Notes: a model not told the origin generated them from the sequence alone. A stretch of 64,000 nucleotides of DNA from Clostridium sp. CAG:967 (GCA_000433095.1 HF991463.1:17022-81021), one strand, 5' to 3'. Shown: positions 23,721 to 59,085, counted from the first letter of the stretch. Made by a program: numbers and translations.

Positions 23721-23730
23721 GGGGGGGGGG
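23721..23730. repeat. Homopolymeric G10 tract, intergenic, upstream of the pilin-like gene
   Basis: ...TTAATTTC GGGGGGGGGG CAACCG... Confidence 0.9.
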
Positions 23731-35253: not shown

Positions 35254-36759
35254 ATGACTAAGATTATTATTCAGGCAGGCGGTAAAGGTACAAGATTAGA
35301 GGGATTGACAAGAAATAAACCGAAATGTTTAGTTCCTGTAAATAATCTGCCTATATTGTTTTATGCTTTTAAAAAGTTTCCCAGTGCTGAATTTACAATA
35401 ATTGCCGATTACAAAACAGATGTTTTGGAAAAGTATCTTGAAAGTTTTGGCAGTGAATATAATTATAAGATTGTTAAAACTCATAAGAAAGGTACCGCTT
35501 CAGGTATTAAAGAAGCTGTCAGCCATTTTTCGGATGACGAACAATTCATGATTTTATGGTGTGATTTGATATTGTCTGAAAATTTTGAAATCCCTGAAAC
35601 TAAAGGTAATTTTGTCGGAATTTCAAAAGAATTTGAATGCCGCTGGTCTTTTGATAAAAATGAATTTATACATGAACCATCGGTCGAAAAAGGTGTTGCC
35701 GGTTTGTTTATATTTGAAAATAAGAAGTATTTGGAAAATATTCCTGAAGAAGGAGCTCTTGTGCCATGGTTGAAAACTCAAAATATAAACTTTAAAGAGC
35801 TTCCTCTATACGGGTCAAAGGAAATTGGAACTATGCTGTCATATTCTGAAAACAACGAATGTACAAAAAGATGGAGGCCGTTCAATTCTATGAAGTTTGA
35901 CGGTGATATTGTTATTAAAGAAGGTATTAACGAGCAGGGAAGAAAAATCGCTGTTGATGAAAGAGCCTGGTATAAGTTTGTAAAAGATAAAGGATATGAA
36001 TTTATTCCTGAGATTTATGAGTATGAACCTTTAAAAATGAAAAAGGTTCAGGGTAAAAATATTTATGAATACGATTGCCTGACAAGAAGTCAAAAAGAGG
36101 AAATCCTGCTAAATATTATCGAAGCTCTTGAAACTTTGCATAACCTTGTTCCTGCACAGCCTGCAAATATTGAAGATACAAAAATGAACTATATACATAA
36201 AACTTTTGAAAGATTGTCAAAAATTGAAAAATTAGTTCCTTTTGCAGATAAAGAATTCATAAGAATAAACGGGCATTATTACAAGAATGTATTCTTTGAC
36301 AAAGAAAATTTCACTAATATTTTAGAAAAGATGATGCCGAAAGAATTTAAATTAATTCACGGTGACTGTACTTTTTCTAATTTGATGTTTGATACATTCA
36401 ATATGAAAACAATTTTGATAGATCCGAGAGGATATTTTGGCAAAACAAAATTATACGGTGATGTAGACTATGATTGGGCTAAACTTTATTATTCACTGAA
36501 AGGTAATTATGACCAGTTTAATCGTAAGAAATTTACGCTGGATATTAAAGAAAAAGAGGTTGAATTAGCTATAAAACCTAACAATTGGGAAGATATGGAA
36601 GAATTTTTCTTTGACAATATTCCGAACATTGATAAAAATAAAATTAAAGCTTTGCATAGTGTTATTTGGTTGTCGCTGACAACTTATGCGTGGGAAGATT
36701 ATGATTCAATTTGTGGCGCATTTTACAACGGAATAATGCTTGCGGGAGAAATGTTATAA
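35254..36759 (+). CDS. Bifunctional sugar/alcohol-phosphate nucleotidyltransferase (N) and APH/choline-kinase-like kinase (C), LicC/LicA-like
   Basis: N-terminal IIQAGGKGTRLEGLTRNKPKCLVPV (NTP_transferase G-x-G-T-R-L); C-terminal LIHGDCTFSNLMFD (HGDxxxxN Brenner motif) and ILIDPRGYFG (DFG-equivalent). Confidence 0.7.
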   Translation: MTKIIIQAGGKGTRLEGLTRNKPKCLVPVNNLPILFYAFKKFPSAEFTIIADYKTDVLEKYLESFGSEYNYKIVKTHKKGTASGIKEAVSHFSDDEQFMILWCDLILSENFEIPETKGNFVGISKEFECRWSFDKNEFIHEPSVEKGVAGLFIFENKKYLENIPEEGALVPWLKTQNINFKELPLYGSKEIGTMLSYSENNECTKRWRPFNSMKFDGDIVIKEGINEQGRKIAVDERAWYKFVKDKGYEFIPEIYEYEPLKMKKVQGKNIYEYDCLTRSQKEEILLNIIEALETLHNLVPAQPANIEDTKMNYIHKTFERLSKIEKLVPFADKEFIRINGHYYKNVFFDKENFTNILEKMMPKEFKLIHGDCTFSNLMFDTFNMKTILIDPRGYFGKTKLYGDVDYDWAKLYYSLKGNYDQFNRKKFTLDIKEKEVELAIKPNNWEDMEEFFFDNIPNIDKNKIKALHSVIWLSLTTYAWEDYDSICGAFYNGIMLAGEML

Positions 36760-37126
36760 GATGATTGAACTATCGCCATTAGCTAAAACATGGATACTGG
36801 ATGTTGACGGTACTATTGTAAAACATAACGGTCATTTAAAAGGCGGTGATGTTTTGTTAGAAGGAGTAAAAGATTTTTACTCCAGAATATCCGATGAAGA
36901 TAAAGTCATTCTTTTAACAGCAAGAAAAGATGAATATCTTGAAGATTTAAAGATGTTTTTGCATAAAAATAATATCAGATATGATTATATTCTTACAGAT
37001 ATGCCTTTTGGCGAGAGAATTCTTGTAAATGACAGAAAACCGAGCGGTTTAAATACTGCTTATGCTATCAATAAAGATAGAGATGATAAGTTAAATATTG
37101 AATTCGCAATTAATGAGGATTTGTAG
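36740..37126 (+). CDS. Small HAD-superfamily phosphatase-like protein
   Basis: 128 aa; ILDVDGTIV (HAD motif I DxDGT), LLTARKD (motif II T), ILVNDRKP (motif IV-like D); possible later start MIELS at 36761. Confidence 0.6.
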   Translation: MREKCYKMIELSPLAKTWILDVDGTIVKHNGHLKGGDVLLEGVKDFYSRISDEDKVILLTARKDEYLEDLKMFLHKNNIRYDYILTDMPFGERILVNDRKPSGLNTAYAINKDRDDKLNIEFAINEDL

Positions 37127-37189
37127 TCGTATGTCAGTCGAGTTTTTTATAATTACAAATAGATATAGAGAATTTCAAGGAGTTTATCT

Positions 37190-38428
37190 GTGAAAATATT
37201 TGGAAAGCAAAAAACAGGTAACACAATTACTTTCAGATTTCTTGGTATTGTTTTGTATAAAAAGACTATGGAATATACAATTTATGATTCAACTCATATT
37301 GTAAAATCTTTCGAGTCCTATGCAGGCGGCTTATTACAAATACACAAAGAAAAAAGAAATTTTGGTTATTATATAGAAAAAAACATTTTGTTATCAGGTA
37401 TTTCTGTTTGCAAAAAGGTCGAACATGGGAATGTTAAGACAAAATATTTTTGCGGCAGAATAGTAAAACAAAAATCAAATATTGATGAGTTAAAAAAGAC
37501 TTGTTTAAATTATTTTGATAAAAAATACGATGATATTTACGTTTTAAATGCGAACAGCGGTGAAATTTATTTATTTTTATCACATGTTTTTGATGCATTT
37601 ATAAAAAAGAATGGCAGTAAAAATCCTTTATTGGTTGCTACGAAAAAATATCATTTAGAAATAGTAAAAATGATTTGTCCTGAAATCCCTGTTATTTATC
37701 TTGATAACCCCTGTATAAAACTTAAGGACGATTGCACTGTAATCGACAATTTTCGATTCTTTGTAATATTTTCTGATATTTATTTCAGAACAATTGAGTA
37801 CAATATAAAGAATAATCCTGTAGGAGAATATCATTACTTTTCTTCAATTATTAAACATGCGGGGGTTTCAGAAAAAGATTTGAAAATGCGTAAAGCAATA
37901 GTGCCGGCAGATAGCGAAAAATCAATGTTAGAAAAAGTTTCTGAGACGGGGCTTAATATAGATAATTTTGTTATAATTGCTCCTGAAGCTAAATCGTGTG
38001 AACTTGTTGATAATCAGTTTTGGATTGATTTGATTAATGGTTACCGCAATGCAAATTACGATATATATGTTAATTTGGCGGACAACATCGTTGATTTGAC
38101 CGGTGTAGAGTATAAAAGTTGTTTTCTGACATATTCCGAACTTTTTGCACTCGCACGGAAAGCTAAGAAAATAGTTTCTTTAAGAAGCGGTTTAACAGAA
38201 TTTTTATTACAGACTAATGTTCCTACAGATGTTTTATATACAAAATTCCGTATGCGTCCGATTTTTAAAGATATGCCGGTAGAACACGTAATGTCAGGAT
38301 TTGGTATTGAAAAAATTAAGGATGTAAATTTGAATAAAGTAAGAGAATTTAACGTAGAAAAATATGATAATTCTTCTTTACTGAAAGAAATTTTAAACAT
38401 TAAGGAAAATCATTTATGCCAAAAATAA
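37190..38428 (+). CDS. Hypothetical protein, possibly GT-B/TagF-like; N-terminus carries a weak copy of the shared module
   Basis: 412 aa; GTG start with RBS AAGGAG; N-terminal MKIFGKQKTGNTITFRFLGIVLYKK; C-terminal ...IVSLRSGLTEFLL resembles the ends of GT-B-fold transferases (weak). Confidence 0.45.
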   Translation: MKIFGKQKTGNTITFRFLGIVLYKKTMEYTIYDSTHIVKSFESYAGGLLQIHKEKRNFGYYIEKNILLSGISVCKKVEHGNVKTKYFCGRIVKQKSNIDELKKTCLNYFDKKYDDIYVLNANSGEIYLFLSHVFDAFIKKNGSKNPLLVATKKYHLEIVKMICPEIPVIYLDNPCIKLKDDCTVIDNFRFFVIFSDIYFRTIEYNIKNNPVGEYHYFSSIIKHAGVSEKDLKMRKAIVPADSEKSMLEKVSETGLNIDNFVIIAPEAKSCELVDNQFWIDLINGYRNANYDIYVNLADNIVDLTGVEYKSCFLTYSELFALARKAKKIVSLRSGLTEFLLQTNVPTDVLYTKFRMRPIFKDMPVEHVMSGFGIEKIKDVNLNKVREFNVEKYDNSSLLKEILNIKENHLCQK

Positions 38429-39510
38429 CAGTTATATTACCTGTATATAATTCGCAAAAATTTATAGAACAATGTCTTAACAGTATTGTTAATCAGAGCT
38501 TAAAAGACATTGAAATTATATGCATAAATGATTTTTCTCAAGATAATTCCTGGGATATTGTCAAAAATTTTGCTCAAAATGACAGCAGATTTGTTTTGAT
38601 TGAAAACAGTGAAAATAAAAAACAGGGATATTGCAGAAATTTGGGTGTTGTTAAAGCAAAATCACCTTATATTCATTTTATTGATTCTGATGATTGGATT
38701 AATGATTTAGATTTTTATAAAAATGTGTATGAAGAAATTGTAAACAGTGATATTGATATATATGTTTTCAATTACTATGAATATCATAATGATATAAACA
38801 TCTTAGTTGAAGATGAAAAATGTAAACGTTTTCCGTTTTTATACGATAAATTTAAAATGGATACATCTTTAAAAGTTAAAGCATCAGAAATTATTCTTTC
38901 CGGTATGGCATGGGATAAAGTTTATAAAAAAGATTTTCTGATTAATAATAATATAGTTTTTGCAGAAGGTGTGTATTGGGAAGATATTTTATTTAATTTT
39001 CTCTTAAAAATCAGTTCTCCAAAAATAAGAATAACTGACAAGAAATATATTGTTTACAGATTAAATGCAGAAAATTCTACTACAACAAACATTTTAGGAA
39101 TTTGTAAAGATAGTATAAGGATGGCATATATTTCTAAAGAAATGTTGGAAAAGAACGGTTTAATTAAGAAATATAAAAAAGAATTTATAGAAAATTATCT
39201 TTGTACAATATATTTTGATATTTTAAGAAGAGTAAAAGAGAAATCTTATTTAAAATTTTTGTTGATGAAAACTGATATTAAAAAGTTTTTTAATTCACTT
39301 AATCTAACCTCAAATGATTTGGAAATGTTCAGGAATTATAATGAAGGATTATGTGATTTATTACAAGAGCTTATGAAAAGTAATTTGTATATAGACTTGT
39401 TTAAGTACATTATCAGACTTATTTTTTCAGTACGAAATACAGATAATAAGAAATTTAAGATAGTTACAATTTTAGGAATTAAGCTAAAATTCAGGAGGGG
39501 AAATGCCTAA
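38416..39510 (+). CDS. Family 2 glycosyltransferase with C-terminal shared module
   Basis: MPKITVILPVYNSQKFIEQCLNSIVNQSLKDIEIICINDFSQDNS...FIDSDDW; C-terminal FSVRNTDNKKFKIVTILGIKLKFRRG. Confidence 0.85.
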   Translation: MPKITVILPVYNSQKFIEQCLNSIVNQSLKDIEIICINDFSQDNSWDIVKNFAQNDSRFVLIENSENKKQGYCRNLGVVKAKSPYIHFIDSDDWINDLDFYKNVYEEIVNSDIDIYVFNYYEYHNDINILVEDEKCKRFPFLYDKFKMDTSLKVKASEIILSGMAWDKVYKKDFLINNNIVFAEGVYWEDILFNFLLKISSPKIRITDKKYIVYRLNAENSTTTNILGICKDSIRMAYISKEMLEKNGLIKKYKKEFIENYLCTIYFDILRRVKEKSYLKFLLMKTDIKKFFNSLNLTSNDLEMFRNYNEGLCDLLQELMKSNLYIDLFKYIIRLIFSVRNTDNKKFKIVTILGIKLKFRRGNA

Positions 39511-40564
39511 AATTTCTATAATAATACCTGTTTATAATGTTGAAAAATATTTGTCAATTTGTTTGGATAGTATATTAGCTCAGAGCTTCACTGATTTTGA
39601 AGTGATATGTATAAATGACGGATCTGACGATAAATCTTTGGAAATTCTAAATGAATATAAGAATAAGGATAGTCGTATAAGAGTTATCAGTCAGGAAAAT
39701 GCAGGAGTTTCCGCTGCAAGAAACAGAGGTTTGAATGTTGCCAATGGGGAATATATTTCGTTTGTAGACCCTGATGATTGGATAGAACCTGACTGTTATG
39801 AAATTGCTTATAATAAAGCTGTAAACACAAATGCCGATATGTTGTTTTTTGGAGCAAAATATGTAACCGATGAGATAGTAGAAGAAAAAAACTTAAAAAG
39901 TCTGTATATATGTTTAGAAGAAAATGATAATTTAAATGAAATGATACATATAACACACACAATATGGAATAAACTATTTAAAAATTCATTTTTGAAAAAA
40001 CATAATATAAAGTTTGCAGAAAATCTGAAAATTGCTGAAGATGGTGTATTTAATTATTTTTGTATATTGTCAAATCCTAACATAGTTTTTCTTCCTGTAT
40101 CTTTATATAACCACAGAATTTCTAGAGATAACTCGTTAACTACTCAGATTACACCCATTCATGATATTGAAGCATGCAAATATTTAATAAATACTGAAAT
40201 ATTTGCAAATGCAGCATATAAGTATAAAGTAATGGCATTACAAAAATTTATTATGAACATGTTATGGTGGGCAAAACAGCCCAGAGCACGCTGGAATATA
40301 TTCAAAAACAGAAAAGCCATAAATGAATTTAAAAATTATGTAATTGCTAATGTAGGAATAGATATTCTTATAGAATGTTTTAATTATCAAGAATTGAAAG
40401 ATTTTTGTAACCCAAATTATTTAGCAAAATTATTTTCGGTTAAAAACACTTATTTTGATGGACAAAAAATAAAAATTGTTAATATATTAGGCATAAAAAT
40501 TAAAATTGAAATAGGTAAGAAAAATAACAGCTTAAATAAGAAAGAAAGCTTGGAGGAAGTATGA
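39503..40564 (+). CDS. Family 2 glycosyltransferase with C-terminal shared module
   Basis: MPKISIIIPVYNVEKYLSICLDSILAQSF...INDGSDDKS...FVDPDDW; C-terminal FSVKNTYFDGQKIKIVNILGIKIKIEIG. Confidence 0.85.
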   Translation: MPKISIIIPVYNVEKYLSICLDSILAQSFTDFEVICINDGSDDKSLEILNEYKNKDSRIRVISQENAGVSAARNRGLNVANGEYISFVDPDDWIEPDCYEIAYNKAVNTNADMLFFGAKYVTDEIVEEKNLKSLYICLEENDNLNEMIHITHTIWNKLFKNSFLKKHNIKFAENLKIAEDGVFNYFCILSNPNIVFLPVSLYNHRISRDNSLTTQITPIHDIEACKYLINTEIFANAAYKYKVMALQKFIMNMLWWAKQPRARWNIFKNRKAINEFKNYVIANVGIDILIECFNYQELKDFCNPNYLAKLFSVKNTYFDGQKIKIVNILGIKIKIEIGKKNNSLNKKESLEEV

Positions 40565-42921
40565 GTAAAATCTCTATAGTAGTACCTGTATATAATGTAG
40601 AAAATTATCTTTCAAGATGTTTAAACAGTTTGTTAAATCAAACCTTAAAAGATATTGATATAATATGTGTAAATGATGGTTCAACTGACAGCTCAGTAGA
40701 AATTCTTAAAGATTTTGCCAATAAAGACAGCAGAATTAAAATTATAAACAAAGAAAACGGCGGATTGTCATCTGCACGAAACTATGGCATGAAATATGTA
40801 ACAACCGATTATGTAGGTTTTGTAGATTCCGATGATTGGGTAGAGCCTGATACTTATGAACTTGCATTGGCAGCAATGGAAAAGAATAATGTTGATTTTG
40901 TTTCCTGGGGTGCAAAAATCGTTGTGGAAAATATCGATGAAGATAATATTGGTGTGGTTTTAGCAAAAGATTATCATAATATTAAAAATGTAGGTTATAA
41001 AGAAATTAATGATTCGATTCTATGCAGGACAACCGTTACTGTTTGGAATAAATTATTTAAGACTGAAATTATTAAAGATAATAATCTTACTTTTCCAAAC
41101 GGTTTAATTTATGAAGATAATGAATTTTTCTTAAAATATGCAATTTATTGTAAAAGTGCATATTATATCGACAAATATTTATATAATTATTTACAACGTT
41201 CTAATTCTATTATAGGAAATATGTGTACTAAAAAGTCTAATAAGGCTTTAGATTATATAAAAATTTATGAAAATATTTATAAATATTATGAGAGTTTCAA
41301 TTTATTAGATAAGCATAAAGATTTAATTTCAAATAAATTTAACAGTATAATGTGGAATGCTTATAGCCATTGTCAAGATAAAAAGCTTGTGAAAAAGAAA
41401 TTAAGAGAGCTTGCTAAAAGTTTGGATAATGATATTTTGCAAAATGAAAATATTCATTTAATCAAAAAAAATAAATTCCATAAAATAAATAATTTGAATG
41501 TGTCAAAAATAGATTTTGGCAATAGATTGTTGGGTTTTGAGGAAAAACGTGATAAAATCATTTTCAAACTTTTGGGAATAAAAATTTCATTAAAAAAACA
41601 AATGATTTTTTCTAAGAAAAAAGAAAACAATAAAAAGATATTCAGGATATTAGGAATAAAATTTACGTTCAAAGATAAAAAAGCTGTATTAGATAACAGA
41701 TTTAATGATTTGTACTATAAATTAAATCAACAAAAAATTGCATTTGATAAAGATATTGAAAATAATTTGGAGTTAACAAAATACTTCATGGAAGATAAAC
41801 TTTTGTCAGATGCTAAGAATAATCAATTTAAAGGCAGATATCCTGATTTTGACAATAAAATCAAAGAATATGTAAAAGATTTTGATAAATTCTATTTCTA
41901 TCCGAATGTCGGTAATATGGGCGACGGTATTATTGCCGAAGCAGAATATCAAATTTTAAATAACGGTAAATATAATTACAGCATTGTTGATAATTACTCC
42001 GGGCAATCTTTTGCACCGTGTGAAGATTATAATCTTGTATACGGCGGAGGCGGACTTTTCGTAAAATATTGGAATTATCAAAAAGTCTTAGATATTTTTA
42101 GAGATAAAAATCTCAAAAAATGTGTTGTACTGCCATCAAGTTTTTTTGAATGTGATGATGTTCTTGAATGCTTTGATGAAAGATTTACGGTATTTTGCCG
42201 TGAAGAATTCAGCTATAAATACTGTATCTCTAAAAATAACAGAGCAAAATTTATTCAGGCAGATGATATGGCATTTTCTTTAAACCTTGATTTGCAGGAA
42301 AAATACGATGTTCAAAAAATTAAAGAGAATATTCAATATTTAAGCAATAAGGATTTATCGGTTCTTGTTAATATAATTTATCCTAAAATAAAAAAGTTAT
42401 ACCAAAACGTGCAGTGTGCATTGAATGAAAAAACTGTAATAAATTCAAATAAAGTCAGAATAGGATATTTATTACGCACTGATGCAGAAAAGAAGTCAGA
42501 AAAAACAGCTTTTCCAAGTATGGATTTATCAATTTTTGCGAACAGCCCTTGCACTGATACCGGAGTTGTAGGTCTTATTTCAAGAGTATTTATTGAAACT
42601 TTAAATTCATTTGATATTATTATAACAGACAGATTACATATAGGTTTGGTTTCTTCCCTTTTGGGAAAAGAAGTTTATCTTTTAGATAATTCTTACAAAA
42701 AAGTTTCCGGAATTTATGAGTATTCAATGCAATCATACAAAAATACACATATAATATCATCAGTTAATGATATAAGTATAGATAACCTGAAAACAAAAAC
42801 TTCCAAAGCAGATCTGAATATTTTAAATAATACATTTAATATCGAAAAGTTTTTCAACTTATATCTCAGCAAACTTAAATATGAAAAAACAATTAAAAAT
42901 ACAATATGGAGTGTAAAATAA
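40561..42921 (+). CDS. Fusion: family 2 glycosyltransferase (N) + two tandem shared modules + polysaccharide pyruvyl transferase-like domain (C)
   Basis: N-terminal MSKISIVVPVYNVENYLSRCLNSLLNQT...VNDGSTDSS...FVDSDDW; linker IIFKLLGIKISLKKQ and KIFRILGIKFTFKDKK; C-terminal FYFYPNVGNMGDGIIAEAEYQ...VYGGGGLF (PS_pyruv_trans PNxGNxGD + GGG motifs). Confidence 0.7.
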   Translation: MSKISIVVPVYNVENYLSRCLNSLLNQTLKDIDIICVNDGSTDSSVEILKDFANKDSRIKIINKENGGLSSARNYGMKYVTTDYVGFVDSDDWVEPDTYELALAAMEKNNVDFVSWGAKIVVENIDEDNIGVVLAKDYHNIKNVGYKEINDSILCRTTVTVWNKLFKTEIIKDNNLTFPNGLIYEDNEFFLKYAIYCKSAYYIDKYLYNYLQRSNSIIGNMCTKKSNKALDYIKIYENIYKYYESFNLLDKHKDLISNKFNSIMWNAYSHCQDKKLVKKKLRELAKSLDNDILQNENIHLIKKNKFHKINNLNVSKIDFGNRLLGFEEKRDKIIFKLLGIKISLKKQMIFSKKKENNKKIFRILGIKFTFKDKKAVLDNRFNDLYYKLNQQKIAFDKDIENNLELTKYFMEDKLLSDAKNNQFKGRYPDFDNKIKEYVKDFDKFYFYPNVGNMGDGIIAEAEYQILNNGKYNYSIVDNYSGQSFAPCEDYNLVYGGGGLFVKYWNYQKVLDIFRDKNLKKCVVLPSSFFECDDVLECFDERFTVFCREEFSYKYCISKNNRAKFIQADDMAFSLNLDLQEKYDVQKIKENIQYLSNKDLSVLVNIIYPKIKKLYQNVQCALNEKTVINSNKVRIGYLLRTDAEKKSEKTAFPSMDLSIFANSPCTDTGVVGLISRVFIETLNSFDIIITDRLHIGLVSSLLGKEVYLLDNSYKKVSGIYEYSMQSYKNTHIISSVNDISIDNLKTKTSKADLNILNNTFNIEKFFNLYLSKLKYEKTIKNTIWSVK

Positions 42922-45059
42922 TGGAAAAAGATAAAATTAAACGATTTATAGATTGTTATGTGCCTGTAACTACTTGCAATTTAAGATGTCATTATTGCTA
43001 TATTACACAGCAGAGAAAGTTCGATGCTTGTTTGCCCGAGTTCAAATATTCTGCTGACCATATTGCAAAAGCTTTGTCTAAAGAAAGACTTGGAGGTGTT
43101 TGCTGTATAAACTTTTGTGGCGGAGGAGAAACTTTATTGCCTCCTGAAATGATTAGCATTATTAGAAAGTTATTGGAAGAAGGTCATTATATAATGGTCG
43201 TTACTAATGGTACTGTTTCCAAAAGATTTGACGAAATTGCCCAAATGCCTAAGGAACTCTTAGAAAGACTTTTCTTCAAATTTTCTTTCCATTATTTAGA
43301 ACTTAAAAGAATTAATATGATGGATAAATTCTTTGATAATATTAGAAAAGTAAGAGATGCAGGTGCTTCTTTCACTCTTGAAATTACTCCGAGTGATGAG
43401 TTAATTCCATATATTGATGAAGTCAAAGAGGTTGCTTTAAAAAATGTTAAAGCCCTTCCTCATATTACGGTTGCACGTGATAATACACAATACGAACTGC
43501 CGATTTTAACATCTCATTCAAAAGCAGAGTATAAAAATATCTGGGGACAATTTAAATCAGGATTGTTCAATTATAAATATTCAGTATTTAACAAAAAACG
43601 AAAAGAATTTTGTTATGCAGGTGATTGGACTTTCTATCTGAATATAGGTACAGGAGAAATGAAACAATGCTATAAAGGTGATATTCTCCAAAATATTTAT
43701 GAAAATGTAGATGAACCTATCCGCTTTAGAGTTGTAGGCAACAACTGCAGGGAATCTCATTGTTACAATGCCCACGCATTTTTAACTTTCGGTGCAATTC
43801 CGGAACTTAAATCTCCTACTTATACTGAAATGAGAGATAGGGAATGTACTGACGGAACCCACTGGTGCGGAGAAAAAGTCAGAGATTTCTTCTCGCAAAA
43901 ATTAGTTAACAGTAACAAGACATTAAGTTTGAAACAGAAAAGAAAAATTAACAAAATGTACAGAAAAAATAAATCTGTTAAATTATTGGAACAAGTATTT
44001 TCAGTTAAAAATGATTGTCCTAATAATAATGAAAAATCTCATAAAATTGTTACTGTTATGGGAGCACGAATAAAATTTAAAGTAAAGAATAAAAAATTCT
44101 TGCAAAATCAAATTTGTTCTTTAAAACAGGAGATTAATACATTAAAAGAAAACCAAAAAAACATAAGATTATATCTTGAGCTTGAAAGACTTGACAGACA
44201 AATAAAAGAAATGGCTCCTAAGGACCAGATGATATTTGTTTGTATCAACGGTATAGGCGATACTATGTTGTATGCTTCTTACTGGAAAGAACTTGAAGCC
44301 AAATACGGTACAAAAATATTCTGGGTGGTTGTTAAATCTCATGAAGTAATCATGAAAATGTACGGTATTACAAATTATATGGTTCTTGAAACTATGAGCG
44401 TTCAAAAACAAGGGACATTCTCAGAAGCAATCAATATGACAACCAAACCAGTCAAGGGTATTCCTTTCTACGCTCACTGGACATATAACAAAACTACACG
44501 TGTTAAAGAAGATTATTTCTTGGATTTTGTAAGAAATTCAATGGATTTAAAAGGCTTACCTTTAAACCACCCTGTTTGGTATCCTGAAATAAATGATGAT
44601 TTAAAAGCTAAAATTGCTTGTATAAAAGATTTAAACAAAACTGTATTAATTTCACCTGATGCAAGATGGTTACCGCTTAATGATGTAAATTTGTGGAATT
44701 CGTTAATAAAAGAACTCAAGGCAGAAGGTTTCGAAATTATAGTTAACGACTTTTTACATAAGTTAAAATTAAACGGAGCCGTCTGCTGTTCTGATTTTAC
44801 AACAGAAGAACTTGTAGCTTTATCACACAATTGTTATGCGACAGTTTCTCCAAGAAGCGGATTTACTGATATAATGCATGAACTCGGTGAAAAACTGTTT
44901 GTTATTTATTCAAATTGTGATTGGAAAAAATTGTTTACTTTAAACAGAATTTGTTCTACATCTGATGTAAATGAATATGTTAATACTCCTGATTTCAATG
45001 TAAAACAAGTCGTAAAAGATATTAAAAAAATATCTTGTAAAGAGGCAGCTAAAGTATGA
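42906..45059 (+). CDS. Fusion: radical SAM domain (N) + shared module + coiled coil + GT9 (heptosyltransferase)-like domain (C)
   Basis: CNLRCHYC (CX3CX2C) and GGGETLL (GGE SAM motif); mid FSVKNDCPNNNEKSHKIVTVMGARIKFKV; C-terminal MIFVCINGIGDTMLYASYW ... VLISPDARWLPLNDVNLWNSLIKELKAEGFEIIVN resembles the GT9 fold. Confidence 0.6.
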   Translation: MECKIMEKDKIKRFIDCYVPVTTCNLRCHYCYITQQRKFDACLPEFKYSADHIAKALSKERLGGVCCINFCGGGETLLPPEMISIIRKLLEEGHYIMVVTNGTVSKRFDEIAQMPKELLERLFFKFSFHYLELKRINMMDKFFDNIRKVRDAGASFTLEITPSDELIPYIDEVKEVALKNVKALPHITVARDNTQYELPILTSHSKAEYKNIWGQFKSGLFNYKYSVFNKKRKEFCYAGDWTFYLNIGTGEMKQCYKGDILQNIYENVDEPIRFRVVGNNCRESHCYNAHAFLTFGAIPELKSPTYTEMRDRECTDGTHWCGEKVRDFFSQKLVNSNKTLSLKQKRKINKMYRKNKSVKLLEQVFSVKNDCPNNNEKSHKIVTVMGARIKFKVKNKKFLQNQICSLKQEINTLKENQKNIRLYLELERLDRQIKEMAPKDQMIFVCINGIGDTMLYASYWKELEAKYGTKIFWVVVKSHEVIMKMYGITNYMVLETMSVQKQGTFSEAINMTTKPVKGIPFYAHWTYNKTTRVKEDYFLDFVRNSMDLKGLPLNHPVWYPEINDDLKAKIACIKDLNKTVLISPDARWLPLNDVNLWNSLIKELKAEGFEIIVNDFLHKLKLNGAVCCSDFTTEELVALSHNCYATVSPRSGFTDIMHELGEKLFVIYSNCDWKKLFTLNRICSTSDVNEYVNTPDFNVKQVVKDIKKISCKEAAKV

Positions 45060-45649
45060 TTTTAACTTATCATAAAGTTTCATTTATCAAAAATGATAAA
45101 ATTACCGTTAATGTTTGGAATTTTATCATGCAGATGTATGCAATAAGAAAAAAAATTGTTGTATATCTCGACGATTATGACTTGAATGATAATAATCAGG
45201 TTGTTTTAAGGTTTGACGACGGTTACAAAAGTGTATTAAAATATGCTGTACCTGTTCTTAAATTCTTTGGTTATCCTTTTGAAGTTTTTATTGTTGAAGA
45301 TTTCTTTAACAGAGGAGAAAAAGGTGATAAAAATTTTTTAAATAAAAAAGATTTGGAGAAGATAATAAAATCAGGAGGTCGACTTCAATATCATACAAAA
45401 TCCCATCCGGATTTAAGTATCATTGAAGATGAAGAAATCTTAAAAACAGAATTGATTTGTCCTGAATATATTAAGCAACTGGATAAAAACGGCTTTAAAT
45501 TCTTGGCATATCCTTTTTGGAAATATAATTCCAAATCAATTGAATATGTTCAAAAATTATATAATGGAGCTTGTTCGGGTAACGGCTTTGCTGAAAATAA
45601 TAAATATTCTATGGATGGAATAAGGGTAGAGGCAAATACTAAAATATAA
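45056..45649 (+). CDS. Polysaccharide deacetylase (CE4 / NodB-homology) family protein
   Basis: 197 aa; VLRFDDGYKS (NodB motif 1 DDG), HTKSHPDL (His-His metal motif). Confidence 0.65.
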   Translation: MILTYHKVSFIKNDKITVNVWNFIMQMYAIRKKIVVYLDDYDLNDNNQVVLRFDDGYKSVLKYAVPVLKFFGYPFEVFIVEDFFNRGEKGDKNFLNKKDLEKIIKSGGRLQYHTKSHPDLSIIEDEEILKTELICPEYIKQLDKNGFKFLAYPFWKYNSKSIEYVQKLYNGACSGNGFAENNKYSMDGIRVEANTKI

Positions 45650-45659
45650 AGGAGAAATT

Positions 45660-46865
45660 ATGTCTAAATTGTTGGAAAATATATTATCTGTGAAAAATCA
45701 TGGAGATCATAAAACTTTTACTTTAATGGGAGTAAAGTTTAGATTTAGAAATGAAAAAGTTATACAAAAAAGAATTCTTTCAGGTTTATATGAAACCAGA
45801 GATAATATTGCTAAACTAAGCAGCAAGGTTGTATGCGTTAATAATGAAGAAAGAAAGAAATGGGTAATCGAAAATATTGGCAACAAAGACTTTTATGAAC
45901 AAGAATTGCTTATATACAATACTTTTGAACAGATGAAAGCAAGAAAACTTTATCCTGTTTTCAGAGATAGAATTTCAAGAGGTAAAATGATTTTGTCTAT
46001 GAAAGTTTTTCAAGAGCGTTATCCTGAATATAACGGGTTCTTATTTACAGATGTCCAGGGATTAGAAAATGATTTTAAGGTTTATAACAAAGATGATATT
46101 AAGAGTATGAACCCGGATACTGATATGGCAATTCTTGCATATAATCAGGATTATGTTGCTCTGGATTTAATCGACGAGCTTAATAAATATAATATAAAAT
46201 ATTATGCGGCTATACAGTCCTTTCCTCATGCAAGATATTTTCATACGGATGAAAATGCCTTAAAAGTTTTAGATGAAGAATCAATGTCTGACAGCTGGCA
46301 TTTCTGTCCGGTAGATTTTGAAAATATATTTCAGGCTATTAAGGCAAGCAATACACTCGAAGGTGATTACGTTGAAATAGGTACTTTTAAAGGAGATTCA
46401 GCTTCTGCTGCCTTAAATTATATGAAGAAAACAGGTATAAATAAAAGAGCATATTTTATTGATACATACGAAGGTTTTAATTATGAACAAGCTTTTAAAT
46501 CCAATGATACTTTTTGGAAAAAGGGGCATACAAATACTTCTTATGACAATGTTAAAGAAAGACTGTCAAAATATGATAATGCAAATGTCGTTAAAGGTAA
46601 TATAATTTCTGATGAGTTGCCGGCTGAGATTGAGAAAATTTGTGTTGCAAATATTGATGTTGACCTGTATGAAGCAGTAAAAGCAGCATTATATAAGGTT
46701 AAAGATAAAGTAGTGAAAAATGGTATAATTATTGCTGAAGACTACGGGCACACTCCGACTTTAATCGGCGGACAAAAAGCGGTAGATGAATTTATTGAAG
46801 AAAATAAAAACGATTTCATTCCTCTTTATATGAACAGCGGACAAATGTTTTTAATTAAAAAATAA
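45660..46865 (+). CDS. TylF/MycF-family class I SAM-dependent O-methyltransferase with N-terminal shared module
   Basis: N-terminal ILSVKNHGDHKTFTLMGVKFRFRN; C-terminal GDYVEIGTFKGDSA (SAM GxG) and NIDVDLYEAVKAAL (TylF-family hID.DLYEsT motif). Confidence 0.7.
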   Translation: MSKLLENILSVKNHGDHKTFTLMGVKFRFRNEKVIQKRILSGLYETRDNIAKLSSKVVCVNNEERKKWVIENIGNKDFYEQELLIYNTFEQMKARKLYPVFRDRISRGKMILSMKVFQERYPEYNGFLFTDVQGLENDFKVYNKDDIKSMNPDTDMAILAYNQDYVALDLIDELNKYNIKYYAAIQSFPHARYFHTDENALKVLDEESMSDSWHFCPVDFENIFQAIKASNTLEGDYVEIGTFKGDSASAALNYMKKTGINKRAYFIDTYEGFNYEQAFKSNDTFWKKGHTNTSYDNVKERLSKYDNANVVKGNIISDELPAEIEKICVANIDVDLYEAVKAALYKVKDKVVKNGIIIAEDYGHTPTLIGGQKAVDEFIEENKNDFIPLYMNSGQMFLIKK

Positions 46866-46882: not shown

Positions 46883-49750
46883 ATGCAAAAAGAGCTTTTA
46901 AAGAATATATTTAATAAAATAAAAGAAAACTCCAATATTAATTTATCACTTATTCAACAAAATTCTTTGAAAATTAACCTTGAACGCCAGGTAGGTTATA
47001 TTTGTAAAGATAGGCATAGTGAATACAAAAAATATTGGCTGACTTTGGCATTTTCTGATGCTCAAAAATACCGTTTAAAAAAGACTGTAGATAATATAAC
47101 AGATAAATCATTAGTTTGGTCTAAATATTTTGAATTTATTATGCCTGTTTCATACGGTGAATGTGATAATGTCTATTATGTCTTATATCCTTTCCTAGAG
47201 AATACATCTAGAGGTCAATATGGTGATGTCAAGATTTATGAAGATATTTTATATGATATTTATGAAAAAGAATCTTATACTGTGAAACTTACTCCGGAAA
47301 AGATTAATGAAATTATGAATAGTATTGTAGAAGAAAGATGTCCTGATAATACTATAAGCCGGGAAAATTTCATTAATAGTGAAGCTTTTATTGAATATAG
47401 AGAACTTTTAAGCAGTTACGATGAGATAGAAATGGTTCGTTCTCATTGCGATTTTAAACCCCAAAACATAATAAATTGTCAAAATAAAAAATATTTAATA
47501 GGATTTGAATTCGGCGGAATTGATTTGCCGGTCGGATTTGATTTATTCTGCCTCAGACGTGGCACTGTTGAGAAAAATTATTCTGATGTTCCGTATAAAG
47601 AACTTCATGAGATATTTTGCAAATTCCATCATGTGGGAGATGGTGTATCATGGTTAAAATATTGCAATCCGATTGTAAAACTTGATAAGGGACGTCAATT
47701 TATTAAAATTCTTGAAAATGGAAAATTCACAACTATTGATATTAAGCAAAATTTTCCTATTTATAAACTCGATTTGTTAATTGATTTTCAAAATATAGAA
47801 ATTTCTTCAGCAGCTGTATTTAAGCTGGTTAAACTGATTTATAAAAAATATAATAATAACTATATAATAAGATTTCAAAATTGTCCTTTCTGGTTCGAAA
47901 GGCTTACACAGGATGAGGAAAACGTGCTTTCGTTTTCGGGTGTAATTAATAAAGACTATGAAGAACCTAAAAATTTTATTGATTATTTAAAATCTACACA
48001 GGCTTATGTAAATTATTCTAAAATTATGCCTTATGTTAAACCATACTGGTTTAGAGCACTGTTAGCAGTTCTCATTTGTATCCCTATAGGTTCTTTGGAT
48101 GCTGTAATTGCTTTATCTTTAAAACCTTATATGGATTTGGTTATGGTTGACAAATCAGTTCAATCGCCAATGTATATTCCTTTTGCAATTGTAGCTTTTA
48201 CATCTGTTCAGGGATTTTTAAATTATTTTGCGACTTATATGAACACCTGGGTTGGAACAAAAATTACAAACGACCTGAAGTTTGATTTGTATAAAAAAAT
48301 GCTTACCCTGGAAACAGCTTATTTTGATAAGAAGAAATCCGGAGATATTGTTTTTAGATTTAATAACGATGCAGATGCTGCCTGTGCAGGACTGTTAGAT
48401 AATTTAAAAACTTTTGTTTCAAGATTATTTTCTTCTCTTTCGCTTGTATGTGTATTATTTTATAATTCATGGCAGCTTGCATTGATTGCTGTATTTGTTC
48501 TTGGATGCGCATTTTTACCGTTGACCAAAATCCGTAAGAGAATTAAGGATGTTCTTGATAAATCTATTTCAATTACAGCCTCAATTATTACTTCGTATAA
48601 TGAAAGTTTTGCAGGAAACAAAACTATCGCTTCTTATAATCTTGATAAGATTCAGGAAACAAAATTTAAAAATATTTTAAATTCATTATTTTCTTTAAAA
48701 ATAAAACTTATTCAACGAACTTCATGGTTGTCACCTATGATGCACGTTATAGTATCTGTAGGTATCGGGATAGCTATAGCTTACGGAAGTCATTTAATTT
48801 TGACAAATCAAATTACAAGCGGTAATTTTGTTTCATTTATTACTGCTTTAATTATGTTGTATACTCCTATTAAAAATCTCGGCAATAACTTTAATGCTGT
48901 TCAATTTTCTTTCCTGGCTATTGAAAGAGTATTTAGTATACTTGAGTCAGAACCTAAGATTAAAGATAGTGAAAATGCCGTTGTATTAAATAATATTGGA
49001 ACAATAGAATTTAAAGACGTTAATTTTGAATATGTTAGAAATAAACCTGTGTTAAAAAATATAAATTTAAAAGTAACAGCAGGAGAAACTATTGCTCTGG
49101 TTGGGAACTCCGGAGGTGGAAAATCAACTATAGTAAGTCTTATTCCAAGATTTTATGATGTTGTATCAGGTGGAATATTAATTGACGGCATAGATATCAG
49201 AAATCTGACACTTAAATCTTTAAGACAAAATATTGCTATTGTTTTTCAGGACAATTTCTTGTTTTCCGGAACCATAAGAGATAATGTTATGCTGGGGAAT
49301 GAAAATGCGACTGAAAAGGATGTTGAGAAAGCCATTAAAATGGCATATCTCGATGATTTTATAGCAGGGTTGTCAAATGGTTTGGATACGCAAATAGGCG
49401 AACGTGGAATTCTTTTATCAGGCGGGCAAAAGCAAAGAGTTGCAATTGCACGTGCTTTTCTTAAGAATGCTCCAATTGTAATTTTAGATGAGGCAACTTC
49501 TGCTTTGGACAATAAAGCAGAGGCAATTGTTCAGAAGGCTATTGACAATTTAATGCAGGATAAAACAGTATTTGTAATCGCTCACAGACTTTCTACAATC
49601 CAGAATGCTGATAAAATTGTAGTTATTAATGAAGGTGAAATCGCTGAAACCGGAAACCATGAAGAACTTCTTAAGATTGATAACGGCGCATACAAAATGC
49701 TTTATGAAATGCAATTTAAAAAGCAGGCAGCAGAAGTATTAGCAAAGTAA
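46883..49750 (+). CDS. Fusion: APH/choline-kinase-like domain (N, ~370 aa) + MsbA/PglK-type ABC exporter (six-TM domain + NBD)
   Basis: HCDFKPQNII (HxDxxxxN) and LIGFEFGG in the N-domain; TM region; Walker A GNSGGGKST, signature LSGGQKQRVAIARAF, Walker B ILDEATSALD, H-loop AHRLST. Confidence 0.8.
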   Translation: MQKELLKNIFNKIKENSNINLSLIQQNSLKINLERQVGYICKDRHSEYKKYWLTLAFSDAQKYRLKKTVDNITDKSLVWSKYFEFIMPVSYGECDNVYYVLYPFLENTSRGQYGDVKIYEDILYDIYEKESYTVKLTPEKINEIMNSIVEERCPDNTISRENFINSEAFIEYRELLSSYDEIEMVRSHCDFKPQNIINCQNKKYLIGFEFGGIDLPVGFDLFCLRRGTVEKNYSDVPYKELHEIFCKFHHVGDGVSWLKYCNPIVKLDKGRQFIKILENGKFTTIDIKQNFPIYKLDLLIDFQNIEISSAAVFKLVKLIYKKYNNNYIIRFQNCPFWFERLTQDEENVLSFSGVINKDYEEPKNFIDYLKSTQAYVNYSKIMPYVKPYWFRALLAVLICIPIGSLDAVIALSLKPYMDLVMVDKSVQSPMYIPFAIVAFTSVQGFLNYFATYMNTWVGTKITNDLKFDLYKKMLTLETAYFDKKKSGDIVFRFNNDADAACAGLLDNLKTFVSRLFSSLSLVCVLFYNSWQLALIAVFVLGCAFLPLTKIRKRIKDVLDKSISITASIITSYNESFAGNKTIASYNLDKIQETKFKNILNSLFSLKIKLIQRTSWLSPMMHVIVSVGIGIAIAYGSHLILTNQITSGNFVSFITALIMLYTPIKNLGNNFNAVQFSFLAIERVFSILESEPKIKDSENAVVLNNIGTIEFKDVNFEYVRNKPVLKNINLKVTAGETIALVGNSGGGKSTIVSLIPRFYDVVSGGILIDGIDIRNLTLKSLRQNIAIVFQDNFLFSGTIRDNVMLGNENATEKDVEKAIKMAYLDDFIAGLSNGLDTQIGERGILLSGGQKQRVAIARAFLKNAPIVILDEATSALDNKAEAIVQKAIDNLMQDKTVFVIAHRLSTIQNADKIVVINEGEIAETGNHEELLKIDNGAYKMLYEMQFKKQAAEVLAK

Positions 49751-49771: not shown

Positions 49772-50957
49772 TTGGAAAATATTAAACAATCAATAAAAAT
49801 AAAAAATATTGAGTTTTTACGATTTATTTTTTCTATATTTATTGTATATTTTCATCTTGTTGCAGGTTATTTATATATAAAGTTAGGTGATTCCGTTGAG
49901 TTATATAATAAATTACATCACCACTGCAACGGGCAATTATGTGTAGAATACTTTTTTGTAATTGCAGGTTTCTTTTTAATTACAAAAACTAATTTTAATA
50001 CTGATATAATAGACTTTGCAAAGAAAAAAATTATTAGATTATGGCCTGTTCTGGCTTTTACGATATGTTTATACTGGCTTTTATCTTTATTTACTCCAAT
50101 AGAATTTTGCAAGTACTCTAATCTTCTTACTATTTTATTAATTGATAATATAGGAATAAATACGGCTTTTGGCAACATGATTTCAACATGGTTTGTATCT
50201 GCATTATTTTGGTGTACTCTTCTGTATTTTTATATATTAAAAAACGTGTCTTCAAAACATGTAAATTTTTTAATAGTATCGCTGGTAATTTTGGCATTAT
50301 CTGCAAAAATTCATTCAAACGGAATGTCTTCTAAAGATGTATTTGTTCTTAATAATATAGGTTTATTAAGAGGAATTTATTGTATTGGTTTGGGATATTT
50401 TATAGGTAAGATATTCCTGAAAACTCGGGGGGGGGGGGGTTTTTTTGCTTTTGATAATATTTGGAAAAATTGGGGGGCGGTTTTCAGCTTTAGACAATAT
50501 ATGGAAAAAATTAATATATACGGGTATAGAGGGTTATCTTTTGATAACGGTTGTTTACAATACTGTATGTTATAAGTCTAAATCGCCTGATATTTATTTG
50601 TTTTATCTCATTACTTTTTGTTTATTGTTCTGGCTTTTTGTTAATCAAAAAGGCTATTTGAGTAAGTTATTTAATCAAAATTTTTCTGTATTTTTAGGCA
50701 AATATTCTTATTCAATATTTATAATACATCCTGTTGTACTTAACCTTTTCAGAGAATATATATGGAAAATACATCCGAATTTTGTTATAAGTTACCCGAT
50801 AATTAATTTGTTTGTGCCGCTTGTTTGTTCTGTTTTGGCAGGAATTGTTGTTTATCATCTGGTAGAAAAACCTGCATATAATTACCTTAAATCAAAATGG
50901 TTTCCCGTTAAAACAAATGCTGATAATTTGAATAATATTATACTTTCTTCGCATTAA
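49772..50957 (+). CDS. Acyltransferase family 3 (OatA/OafA-like) membrane O-acyltransferase, split by a +1 frameshift at a G13/T7 tract (candidate phase-variable gene, currently OFF)
   Basis: N-terminal part 49772-50575 (NIEFLRFIFSIFIVYFHL, an acyltransferase_3 start); C-terminal part in the +1 frame 50445-50957 (YSIFIIHPVV..., ends AYNYLK); removing one G joins the frames. Confidence 0.7.
50427..50439. repeat. Homopolymeric G13 tract immediately followed by T7, inside the acyltransferase gene
   Basis: AAACTC GGGGGGGGGGGGG TTTTTTT GC. Confidence 0.9.
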
Positions 50958-58097: not shown

Positions 58098-58963
58098 TGA
58101 ACGTAACATTAAACACAAACACCTTCAATAATAACAGATATTACAACCAGAACAATCATGCAGCCAAACAGCATTTTACAGCTAATCCGTCATCAAGGGT
58201 TGTCGATGCAGCGGAAGAAGTTCTGAAAAAAGCTGCAAGCGAAGAATCAAGCTTGTTCGAACCGTTTTTAAAATTTTATGACAACTGTACCGATAAAATT
58301 GCTGAAAAATTCACTTCAAAAGTTATTGACAGTAAACCTACCTTCTGGCTTGCAGACAAACTTAAAAACAGCGATAACCTGTTCCAACACTGTCTGACTA
58401 CAGGTTCTGTAATTACAAGCGGATTGTATATGCAAAAAACATTGACAAACGATAAGCTTGATAAAGACAGAAAACGTACACTGGCAGTAAATCAGGGCTT
58501 AACTTTTATTGTTTCTACAATTGGTGCTTATACGCTGGATAAATCATTGAAAAACTGGTGGGAAAACGTTACTGCCAGATATGCAGGCTATCAGTTAGGC
58601 GATGAAAAGTTTGCGGAAAACTTTAAGAACAGCAATATTAAAATTGCAGAAGAAAATAAAGCTATAAAAGCTGCTGCCAAGAAAAAAGGTGTTAAACCGG
58701 AATTAAAATCACTTTTGAAAGTTGAAAAAGAAGTTAAAAAACACGATTACTATAAATCTTTGGAAGCTATCGGCGGTGATATGAAAGAAGCTAAAGCGTT
58801 TATGGGTAAAATAAAAGGTATGGGAATGCTTAGATCAATGATAGTATTTGCCCTTGTTTACCGCTATATTGTTCCTGTAGCTGTGACAAAACCTGCAAAT
58901 ATTCTCTGTGAAAAATACCTTGCACATAAAAAAGCAAAAGCGGAAAATCAAGCTAAGGCTTAA
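58097..58963 (+). CDS. Hypothetical membrane protein (similar architecture to the upstream gene)
   Basis: 288 aa; start overlaps the upstream stop (ATGA); hydrophobic segments VITSGLYM, LTFIVSTIGAYTL, MIVFALVYRYIVPVAV. Confidence 0.45.
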   Translation: MNVTLNTNTFNNNRYYNQNNHAAKQHFTANPSSRVVDAAEEVLKKAASEESSLFEPFLKFYDNCTDKIAEKFTSKVIDSKPTFWLADKLKNSDNLFQHCLTTGSVITSGLYMQKTLTNDKLDKDRKRTLAVNQGLTFIVSTIGAYTLDKSLKNWWENVTARYAGYQLGDEKFAENFKNSNIKIAEENKAIKAAAKKKGVKPELKSLLKVEKEVKKHDYYKSLEAIGGDMKEAKAFMGKIKGMGMLRSMIVFALVYRYIVPVAVTKPANILCEKYLAHKKAKAENQAKA

Positions 58964-59085
58964 AATCTGATACCTTAAACTGAAAATTATATAATTGTTA
59001 CTAAGTATGTAGTAAATTTTTTTGAATTTGCTTGAAAAAAAAAGACATTTATAGTATATTTTGCAGTATAAATGGGGTATAAACA

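Follow-up and report, generated by a model that had tools for sequence, protein, structure and literature searches.

A portable ~32-residue peptide module on unrelated glycan-assembly enzymes, and its possible role as a localisation tag

We found that five enzymes encoded by one glycan-biosynthesis operon carry copies of the same short, lysine-rich peptide module, and that the module belongs to a family so far unannotated. The operon lies in a 64,000-nucleotide (nt) stretch of DNA deposited as Clostridium sp. CAG:967 (GCA_000433095.1, HF991463.1:17022-81021). We refer to this whole stretch as the window and count positions from its first letter. In other genomes the module again occurs on clustered enzymes of unrelated fold that act on a glycan. 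We tentatively favour the reading that it is a portable tag that brings soluble glycan enzymes to the membrane or to an assembly site. A portable localisation or assembly tag is known in kind; what is new is an unannotated module family enriched in one bacterial lineage.

Copies in the window and the wider family

An initial annotation of the window had listed seven copies of the peptide in six enzymes, and all seven stretches were found in the translations where it placed them. We scored them with a profile made from 171 instances from other genomes and no window sequence (the external profile), run on the six-frame translation of the whole window. A second, leave-one-out score was obtained among the window copies. 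The copy at the C-terminus of the glycosyltransferase g38416 (39409-39501, plus strand, as are the other copies; amino acids (aa) 332-362 of 364; IIRLIFSVRNTDNKKFKIVTILGIKLKFRRG) scored 36.7 bits with the external profile and 27.1 bits in the leave-one-out comparison. The copy near the C-terminus of g39503 (40415-40510; aa 305-336 of 353; NYLAKLFSVKNTYFDGQKIKIVNILGIKIKIE) scored 28.8 and 19.4 bits, respectively. Two copies lie between domains. That in the linker between the GT2 glycosyltransferase and pyruvyltransferase domains of g40561 (copy 'b'; 41599-41682; aa 347-374; QMIFSKKKENNKKIFRILGIKFTFKDKK) scored 15.8 and 22.2 bits, and that at the junction of the radical S-adenosylmethionine (SAM) and C-terminal domains of g42906 (43980-44087; aa 359-394; KLLEQVFSVKNDCPNNNEKSHKIVTVMGARIKFKVK) scored 35.3 and 19.1 bits. 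The N-terminal copy of the O-methyltransferase g45660 (45666-45758; aa 3-33; KLLENILSVKNHGDHKTFTLMGVKFRFRNEK) scored 34.7 and 30.7 bits. The leave-one-out comparison agreed with the external profile. As the annotation had noted, the window copies are placed at protein termini or at domain junctions.

The other two stretches were not supported statistically and have support from context only. The first of the two claimed in g40561 (copy 'a'; 41518-41598, +; aa 320-346) is module-like in its second half only (IIFKLLGIKISLK) and scored 8.5 bits, inside the range of shuffled sequences. It is an insertion present only in the closest homologues and directly adjoins copy 'b'. The stretch at the N-terminus of g37190 (37184-37264, +; KIFGKQKTGNTITFRFLGIVLYKK) scored 0.5 bits and is an unproven, possibly degenerate copy. 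Its L-S-V codons lie just upstream of and across the GTG start of g37190, next to a ribosome-binding site (RBS), AAGGAG, at 37178-37183, and in a comparison of DNA repeats the DNA upstream of g37190 resembled the g45660 copy (family D5). The g37190 domain is also homologous to the C-terminal domain of g42906, which comes after a canonical module. By these scores, the window holds five supported copies in five enzymes rather than seven in six.

The GC content of the operon is low (25-30%), which makes Lys, Ile, Asn and Phe abundant, and two of the seven claimed copies were within noise. Might the others also be chance likenesses, of a kind that K/I-rich sequence in an AT-rich genome would produce? 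Among 3,000 composition-matched shuffles of the six proteins, the highest score was 9.2 bits. The best unrelated match in the window scored 12.4 bits (58887-58967; peptide QNLQIFSVKNTLHIKK, matching the first half of the module); because it lies out of frame within a non-glycan gene, we took this match of ~12-13 bits to be chance and not a module. Since the external-profile scores of the five copies (16-37 bits) exceed both the shuffled and the window background, low complexity is excluded for these five. Against chance stand also the number of database clusters that match the module and the near invariance of its F, S, N, H, K and G residues (both below). We regard chance likeness as refuted for the five copies and as extremely improbable for the module.

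As had been proposed, the conservation is that of a portable protein-level unit and not of a DNA repeat. The 42-nt cores of the copies were 33-71% identical as DNA, and where two copies share a residue they used different codons in about half of the positions. In the DNA repeat comparison no long repeat joined the window copies. Because residues are conserved while synonymous positions have diverged, selection acts on the peptide itself. Gene conversion or recent duplication within loci was ruled out by the absence of linking DNA repeats and by the equal identity of modules within and between loci (see below).

One further observation concerns the g38416 copy. Its Lys/Arg tail (...KFRRGNA, followed by the stop codon; 39480-39510) is encoded by DNA containing AGGAGAGG, which by eye looks like an RBS for the overlapping start of g39503 at 39503. 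If so, the tail of this module and the translation-initiation signal of the next gene share sequence.

The module is widespread in protein databases. We searched 1.84 billion representative proteins with a 12-sequence profile using full HMMER (E<=1e-3) and found matches in at least 421 protein clusters. The consensus of 354 unique instances, KKFLQKIFSVKNEGKHKVITILGIKIKFKRKK, is ~32 residues long. Its layout is a lead-in (xFLQxIF), FSVKN, a loop, HKVITIL, a turn at an invariant Gly, IKIKFK and a Lys/Arg tail. Over the 354 instances, F8 was conserved in 97%, S9 in 98%, N12 in 91%, H16 in 82%, K17 in 98%, G23 in 98%, K25 in 89% and K27 in 89%. The loop between N12 and H16 usually has 3 residues, sometimes 5 or 7, with a total range of 3 to 14. 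The net charge is +11 over 32 residues. The third strand-like element (IKIKFK) is perfectly β-amphipathic, with a hydrophobic moment of 3.7-3.9 at 170-180° compared to 0.8 at 100°, the angle of an α-helix; the lead-in alone has α-type periodicity (1.64 vs 0.32). The family is wider than the profile detects. Degenerate versions are present in GT2-pyruvyltransferase fusions and in GT2 neighbours that had seemed to be without the motif, and fusion homologues ~40% identical to g40561 have the module or a degenerate form at the same junction.

The initial annotation could put no name to the module, and neither could we. No Pfam or NCBIfam family covered the module residues in any window protein. 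The 90 module-bearing database proteins that we inspected had no family common to all, the commonest being catalytic domains, and the Pfam lists of g40561 homologues held GT2 and PS_pyruv_trans families only. The 12-copy profile had no match at E<=10 among 177,635 distinct PDB sequences. None of 10 clusters of carrier proteins was named, and literature searches for the motif strings and for glycan biosynthesis in Gastranaerophilales returned nothing relevant. A tblastn search with a two-module consensus gave no plasmid match and a single phage match at E=0.5, which we took as chance. By sequence, therefore, the module belongs to no curated family or solved structure and is a new, unannotated family. 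Because at least 421 clusters carry it unannotated, it deserves an entry in the domain databases.

Carriers, neighbouring genes and predicted fold

The module is found on many unrelated enzymes. Of 191 copies, 59 were N-terminal, 58 C-terminal and 74 internal, with up to four in tandem. Among 90 long carriers, the hosts were GT2 (34), GT8 (14), GT1/4 (5), FkbM (5), DUF4422 (4), RgpF (4), hexapeptide acyltransferases (4), radical SAM enzymes (3), pyruvyltransferases (3), GT-D (2) and TylF (2), together with several SAM-methyltransferase families. All of these host enzymes act on a glycan. The module is nearly absent from transmembrane proteins: none of the 90 long carriers and only 4 of 158 module-bearing proteins from the loci described below had transmembrane-like segments, and all four were borderline.

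Two functions were considered and rejected on this distribution. A recognition peptide for radical SAM enzymes, of the kind found with ribosomally synthesized and post-translationally modified peptides, does not fit the carriers, of which only 3/90 are radical SAM enzymes, and most loci have none. A secretion signal was set aside since many copies are internal and the host families use cytoplasmic donors.

The module was concentrated in gut genomes of the Gastranaerophilales (Melainabacteria). We scanned 185,579 species-representative genomes with a degenerate DNA pattern that demands TCN serine codons, a 3-aa loop and His-Lys, and found 82 stretches in other genomes; because the pattern is strict, the taxonomic picture is a biased sample. 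Approximately 50 of the 80 stretches listed came from gut or rumen metagenome-assembled genomes (MAGs) labelled Gastranaerophilales, Melainabacteria or 'Cyanobacteria bacterium'. Single matches were labelled Endomicrobium, Elusimicrobiaceae, Lentisphaerae, Thermoguttaceae, Fusobacterium, Holosporaceae and others, and some of these outlying labels may come from binning errors.

Genes with the module cluster. We sampled 82 loci from other genomes, each of at most 8 kb (597 kb in total). They held 171 copies, carried by 158 of 465 genes; 51 of the 82 loci had at least two copies and one had seven in 8 kb, in consecutive genes on the same strand. Outside the window, too, the module is confined to clustered enzymes of glycan assembly with many unrelated folds, a point that the initial annotation had asked to be checked.

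Several module-free neighbours recurred. One was an MsbA/PglK-like ATP-binding cassette (ABC) exporter family, with 22 members in 20 of the 82 loci; exporters 68-75% identical in nucleotide sequence adjoined module-bearing genes in ~19 related loci. Others were the nucleotide-sugar enzymes UDP-glucose dehydrogenase, epimerase/dehydratase, DegT aminotransferase and IspD-SDR. The module was not seen on any of the sampled nucleotide-sugar enzymes or ABC exporters. GT2 neighbours that were scored as module-free often had degenerate versions at their C-termini. Genes of the window divide likewise. A supported copy is found on five of the enzymes that have transferase or tailoring domains, and the nucleotidyltransferase-kinase, the HAD-like protein, the deacetylase, the exporter and the integral-membrane acyltransferase are free of it.

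Modules from one locus are no more alike than modules from different genomes. Identity was 47.3% within loci vs 47.4% between genomes (543/1000 permutations), and from this equality we conclude that the target of the module is probably generic and not cluster-specific.

Some open reading frames (ORFs) of 37-57 aa encode the module and nothing else (L083-L085, 8001-8114; L088, 3706-3879; L090, 6001-6120; L086, 6001-6135). These stand-alone mini-ORFs were revealed by a word-indexed profile search of a collection of 5.8 billion proteins, which returned short fragments only, its candidate step favouring short proteins. In 10 contigs the exporter gene is preceded, at a distance of 33 nt, by a 37-aa module ORF that has an RBS of its own. 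P0078, which lies at an operon end, is a truncated form of a 340-aa enzyme type (P0147) and comprises its N-terminus. The mini-ORFs may be remnants or free-standing modules.

The annotation had pictured a strand-Gly-strand shape, and strands are indeed predicted around the invariant Gly. We modelled g40561 with AlphaFold2 using a 78-sequence alignment. The mean predicted local distance difference test score (pLDDT) was 86, and the GT2 (1 to ~310) and pyruvyltransferase (~420-786) domains were confident. Copy 'b' was modelled as strands 350-355 (FSKKKE), 358-363 (KKIFRI) and 366-371 (IKFTFK) with a pLDDT of 55-58. Residues 317-351, which include copy 'a', had a pLDDT below 50, and copy 'a' was not predicted as strands. 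This low-confidence prediction suggests a three-strand β-meander; a unit that depends on an outside partner or surface would be expected to give such low-confidence strands in a linker. Covariation over 348 instances was noisy and gives weak evidence in the same direction: 5 of the 10 top pairs fit a hairpin centred on G23, a signal that could be due partly to subfamily structure. A model of P0007, which has four tandem modules, was made without an alignment and was not used (mean pLDDT 34.6). An α-helical amphipathic targeting sequence of the MinD, FtsA or WbdD type was rejected based on the β-type hydrophobic moment of the last strand, the modelled strands and the internal position of 74 of 191 copies.

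Some copies are followed by a predicted helix or a Pro/Gly-free stretch. In the g40561 model a helix of 48 residues (aa 373-420; 41677-41820, +) begins right after copy 'b', its pLDDT rising from ~55 to 69. The module of g42906 is followed by a coiled-coil-like stretch of 43 aa without Pro or Gly (aa 395-437; 44088-44216, +), read from the sequence. In 55 proteins the module has 80 or more residues downstream of it; in 29% of these a Pro/Gly-free stretch of 30 aa or longer came next, compared to 10% at random positions.

The C-terminal domain of g42906 (44100-45056) had been called GT9-like. Pfam at E<=10 found no Glyco_transf_9 there and only a spurious ResIII match, and there was no significant PDB sequence match, so that the label is unsupported. 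The domain is homologous to g37190 (37190-38428), with 29% identity over 104 aa (E=2e-8); the two belong to an enzyme family that matches no Pfam family or PDB sequence. The domain is free-standing in g37190, and in g42906 it stands behind the radical SAM domain, directly after the canonical module. We observed three elements of the form h-h-x-G-h-x-h-x-K-K in aa 1-95 of g37190 (37190-37480): FRFLGIVLYKK, ILLSGISVCKK and KYFCGRIVKQK. Its homologues have N-terminal hairpin-like 'hLGh' repeats ('ILGIPVY') that were not significant against the module profile. These elements may form a small domain of β-repeats with a distant kinship to the module's second half, a relationship that is statistically unsupported. 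We also considered whether the homologues bridge the g37190 N-terminus to the module family and rejected this, their repeats being below significance.

The exporter gene of the window, g46883 (46883-49750, +), is module-free and encodes an MsbA/PglK-like ABC half-transporter with an extra N-terminal domain of ~370 aa. It scored 535 bits against TIGR02203, below the equivalog cut-off of 602 bits, and is thus MsbA-like but is not called as an MsbA equivalog. The N-terminal domain (46883-48000) had no Pfam or PDB sequence match. It contains a stretch, HCDFKPQN, that we take to resemble a kinase catalytic loop. A nucleotide alignment over the whole gene suggests that the domain is also present in at least one locus of the Gastranaerophilales (L076). 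Most related exporters are ~600 aa long and are without it.

The remaining genes of the operon were called with Pfam-A (2025 copy) and NCBIfam r20 profile searches. The region from 35254 to ~50957 (+) is a single glycan-biosynthesis operon. At its head (35254-37126, +) are two module-free genes of precursor supply: g35254, a fused nucleotidyltransferase and APH-like kinase, and g36740, a small HAD-like protein. The same pair heads related operons (74% nucleotide identity; L083-L085, 819-2691) that differ in their downstream enzymes. Weak NCBIfam matches include MurU and HddC and suggest a salvage-type route from sugar-1-phosphate to nucleoside diphosphate-sugar. A run of glycan-modifying genes follows (37190-46865, +): g37190, a 412-aa protein without an assigned family; g38416 and g39503, GT2 glycosyltransferases; g40561, the GT2-pyruvyltransferase fusion; g42906, the radical SAM enzyme fused to an uncharacterised C-terminal domain; g45056, a module-free polysaccharide deacetylase; and g45660, a TylF-like O-methyltransferase (Pfam TylF at aa 224-383). 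The exporter gene and an Acyl_transf_3 gene (49772-50957) complete the operon.

The Acyl_transf_3 (O-acyltransferase) gene is interrupted by G13 followed by T7 (50427-50439), which divides it into two overlapping ORFs that match positions 2-206 and 192-323 of the Pfam profile. With a genomic GC content of ~30%, such a tract suggests that a glycan-decorating enzyme is switched on and off by slipped-strand phase variation; the alternative is a homopolymer assembly error. Two G10 tracts, at 23721-23730 and 29512-29521, may be further contingency loci, and the latter is inside a 637-aa ORF (28783-30696) that has no Pfam family.

The nearest named homologue of g40561, at 79% identity, is labelled 'Clostridium sp. 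CAG:729', and the nearest DNA relatives among the loci that we fetched were mostly Candidatus Gastranaerophilales MAGs (68-75% nucleotide identity). Because of this label and these relatives, the source of the window is most likely a gut Melainabacterium.

Possible functions of the module

The reading that we tentatively favour is that the module tags soluble glycan enzymes for the membrane or an assembly site. We infer this function as a whole, and the fold from the low-confidence prediction described above. The module would be an autonomous mini-domain of ~32 residues, with an amphipathic lead-in, FSVKN, HKVITIL and IKIKFK as strands 1, 2 and 3, and a tight turn at the Gly. It would keep soluble enzymes, namely glycosyltransferases, methyl-, pyruvyl- and acyltransferases and radical SAM enzymes, on the cytoplasmic side of the inner membrane, where a lipid-linked acceptor would be elongated and then flipped by the MsbA/PglK-type ABC exporter. 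The Lys-rich face would bind the anionic lipid surface, possibly including the phosphates of the carrier lipid, with Ile and Phe side chains inserted, and tandem copies would add avidity. Internal copies would be tags that stood at the end of one partner until gene fusion caught them between domains. In some proteins, the module would also be the base of a coiled-coil-like spacer. Such a role has known analogues, since peripheral enzymes that build lipid-linked glycans must associate with the membrane or be recruited to it. One is WbdD, with its membrane-associated helix and recruitment region (PMC11231755, PMC3482155).

Several points weigh against this reading. The near-invariant S9, N12, H16 and K17 exceed what a generic membrane patch needs, and invariant polar residues suggest a specific ligand or a strict fold requirement. 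The bacterial membrane-targeting sequences known to us are amphipathic helices, not β-hairpins, and the pLDDT of the modelled module is low (55-58). Stand-alone mini-ORFs would be anchors without cargo and make no obvious sense unless they are remnants. Lastly, some GT2 enzymes of the same loci have no recognisable module or only degenerate versions of it.

The main rival is docking. The promiscuous distribution on unrelated enzymes and the clustering also fit a tag for protein-protein docking, either to a common receptor (the exporter or an unidentified scaffold) or by β-sheet augmentation between modules, that would build a multi-enzyme assembly line. Docking analogues are the dockerin-cohesin pair and the β-hairpin docking domains of polyketide synthases and non-ribosomal peptide synthetases. 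The strong conservation of specific polar residues favours docking, as do the recurrence of the conserved exporter as a partner gene in these loci and the module ORF, with its own RBS, just upstream of the exporter gene in 10 contigs. Low AlphaFold2 confidence is consistent with folding on a partner, and in ABC-transporter-dependent pathways multiprotein complexes are known to assemble O-polysaccharide (PMC11231755). However, modules charged +11 would be expected to repel one another unless an anionic partner were present, and tandem arrays of 2-4 fit surface avidity better than one-to-one docking. Because modules of one cluster are not co-adapted, a receptor would have to be universal, and none was identified. 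The initial annotation had named the N-terminal domain of the exporter as a partner to be tested. As the common scaffold this domain is unlikely: since the exporters of most related clusters are without that domain, it is not a general receptor, and no exporter in our sample had a fused module. Overall, we consider docking to be less probable than the membrane reading. A fuller version of it, a cytoplasmic system like cohesin and dockerin in which all soluble enzymes of a Melainabacterial glycan locus plug into a common membrane receptor via the module, is to our mind unlikely. The receptor could then be the conserved MsbA/PglK-like exporter or an undiscovered scaffold, and the mini-ORFs would be regulators or competitors for the docking sites.

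The polar residues might instead recognise the acceptor. The Ser/Asn/His/Lys cluster near the loop between strands 1 and 2 would bind the (pyro)phosphate of an undecaprenyl- or lipid A-linked acceptor, and every enzyme of the pathway would share one substrate handle. The conserved polar and basic residues are grouped in one part of the motif, the target appears generic rather than cluster-specific, and the module is found only on enzymes acting on the lipid-linked glycan, not on the sampled nucleotide-sugar enzymes. Nevertheless, this idea is pure conjecture. It is hard to square the precise positioning of a substrate with tandem copies and with a position that may be N-terminal, C-terminal or internal. 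The loop also varies in length, from 3 to 14 residues, and we find this role distinctly doubtful. A purely structural role seems even less probable to us. In that case the module would have no targeting function and would serve to cap or nucleate the coiled-coil-like helices downstream of it, or would be a neutral 'junction scar' of gene shuffling. The excess of Pro/Gly-free stretches after the module, the modelled helix 373-420 of g40561, the placement of modules exactly at gene and domain boundaries and the truncated remnants that stop right after the module (P0078, equal to the P0147 N-terminus) are all in keeping with it. Yet most copies are at extreme termini with nothing after them, the conservation of residues despite synonymous divergence indicates selection on the peptide, and DNA identity of 33-71% over 42 nt is too low for homologous recombination.

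The initial annotation had offered two functions, docking and association with the membrane or a carrier lipid, and the evidence does not separate them. We judge that it leans to a generic, multivalent target such as the membrane, because of the +11 charge, the β-amphipathic last strand, the tandem copies, the lack of co-adaptation within clusters and the near-absence of the module from transmembrane proteins.

In the assembly of bacterial glycans, it is an open question how soluble glycosyltransferases and tailoring enzymes locate one another and their lipid-linked acceptor. Known solutions, such as a helix or a coiled-coil protein, are idiosyncratic, and the module looks like a standardised and transferable one, a single small unit serving more than a dozen enzyme families across a whole lineage of gut bacteria. 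The pattern is striking as well as robust and would come as a surprise to specialists in this field, although the function is inferred and the organisms are uncultured. If the module is a membrane or assembly tag, it would provide a testable, compact and portable handle for enzyme targeting in glycoengineering, a sequence marker that picks out which enzymes of a locus work on the lipid-linked glycan, and an entry to the unknown surface glycans of Melainabacteria of the human and animal gut. If instead it is a docking tag, loci could exchange enzymes freely and keep a working assembly line, and a dedicated receptor, if found, would make the module categorically new for glycan assembly.

Comparison with known systems

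Choline-binding (CW_binding_1) and MORN repeats are, like the module, β-hairpin units of ~20-30 aa that occur singly or in tandem on diverse catalytic domains. Repeats of this type localise their hosts through binding to a repetitive surface. Those that bind choline are extracellular and rich in aromatic residues, whereas the module is cytoplasmic and rich in Lys, and Pfam lists no CW_binding_1 or MORN family on module-bearing proteins. We also compared the module with the coiled-coil 'molecular ruler' terminators (WbdD, WbbB and those of Klebsiella O4/O7), in which an extended coiled-coil lies between catalytic modules and the terminating activity is distal. Here the predicted 48-residue helix of g40561 and the 43-aa Pro/Gly-free stretch of g42906 are candidates for a coiled-coil of this kind.

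MinD and FtsA carry amphipathic membrane-targeting sequences. These, and the C-terminal appendage of TagA, are like the module in being portable, terminal, basic-hydrophobic peptides by which a soluble protein is brought to the cytoplasmic membrane. In the case of TagA, interaction of the appendage with the bilayer has been proposed to let the enzyme recognise its lipid-linked substrate (PMC6493773). All of these elements are α-helical, with little residue-level conservation across families. In contrast, the module has β periodicity in its core, predicted strands and invariant polar residues, and is often internal or in tandem.

Dockerins are also short, non-catalytic modules at the termini of, or between domains of, unrelated enzymes that act on one substrate. 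Dockerin modules co-localise the enzymes of cellulosomes. They differ from the module described here in being Ca2+-binding, duplicated F-hand modules of ~70 aa on secreted enzymes, with a defined cohesin receptor; the module is ~32 aa, strongly basic, predicted to be β and found on cytoplasmic enzymes. No Pfam Dockerin match was found in the window proteins or in the 90 carriers, and the module has no Asp/Asn-rich Ca2+ loop.

WbdD and WbdA of E. coli O9a and Klebsiella O3/O5 provide another parallel. In both cases a short non-catalytic element holds, or in our reading would hold, soluble glycan enzymes at the cytoplasmic face of the membrane, and in the WbdD/WbdA system the enzymes are assembled in a complex before export by an ABC transporter. 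A subset of the modules here also precedes coiled-coil-like helices, as in WbdD. There is no sequence relationship, and the exporter here is a half-transporter of the MsbA/PglK type rather than Wzm/Wzt. The WbdD anchor is an α-helix on one dedicated protein, which recruits the others. In our case most enzymes of the locus have a β-type module of their own, and the module is found on more than a dozen enzyme families.

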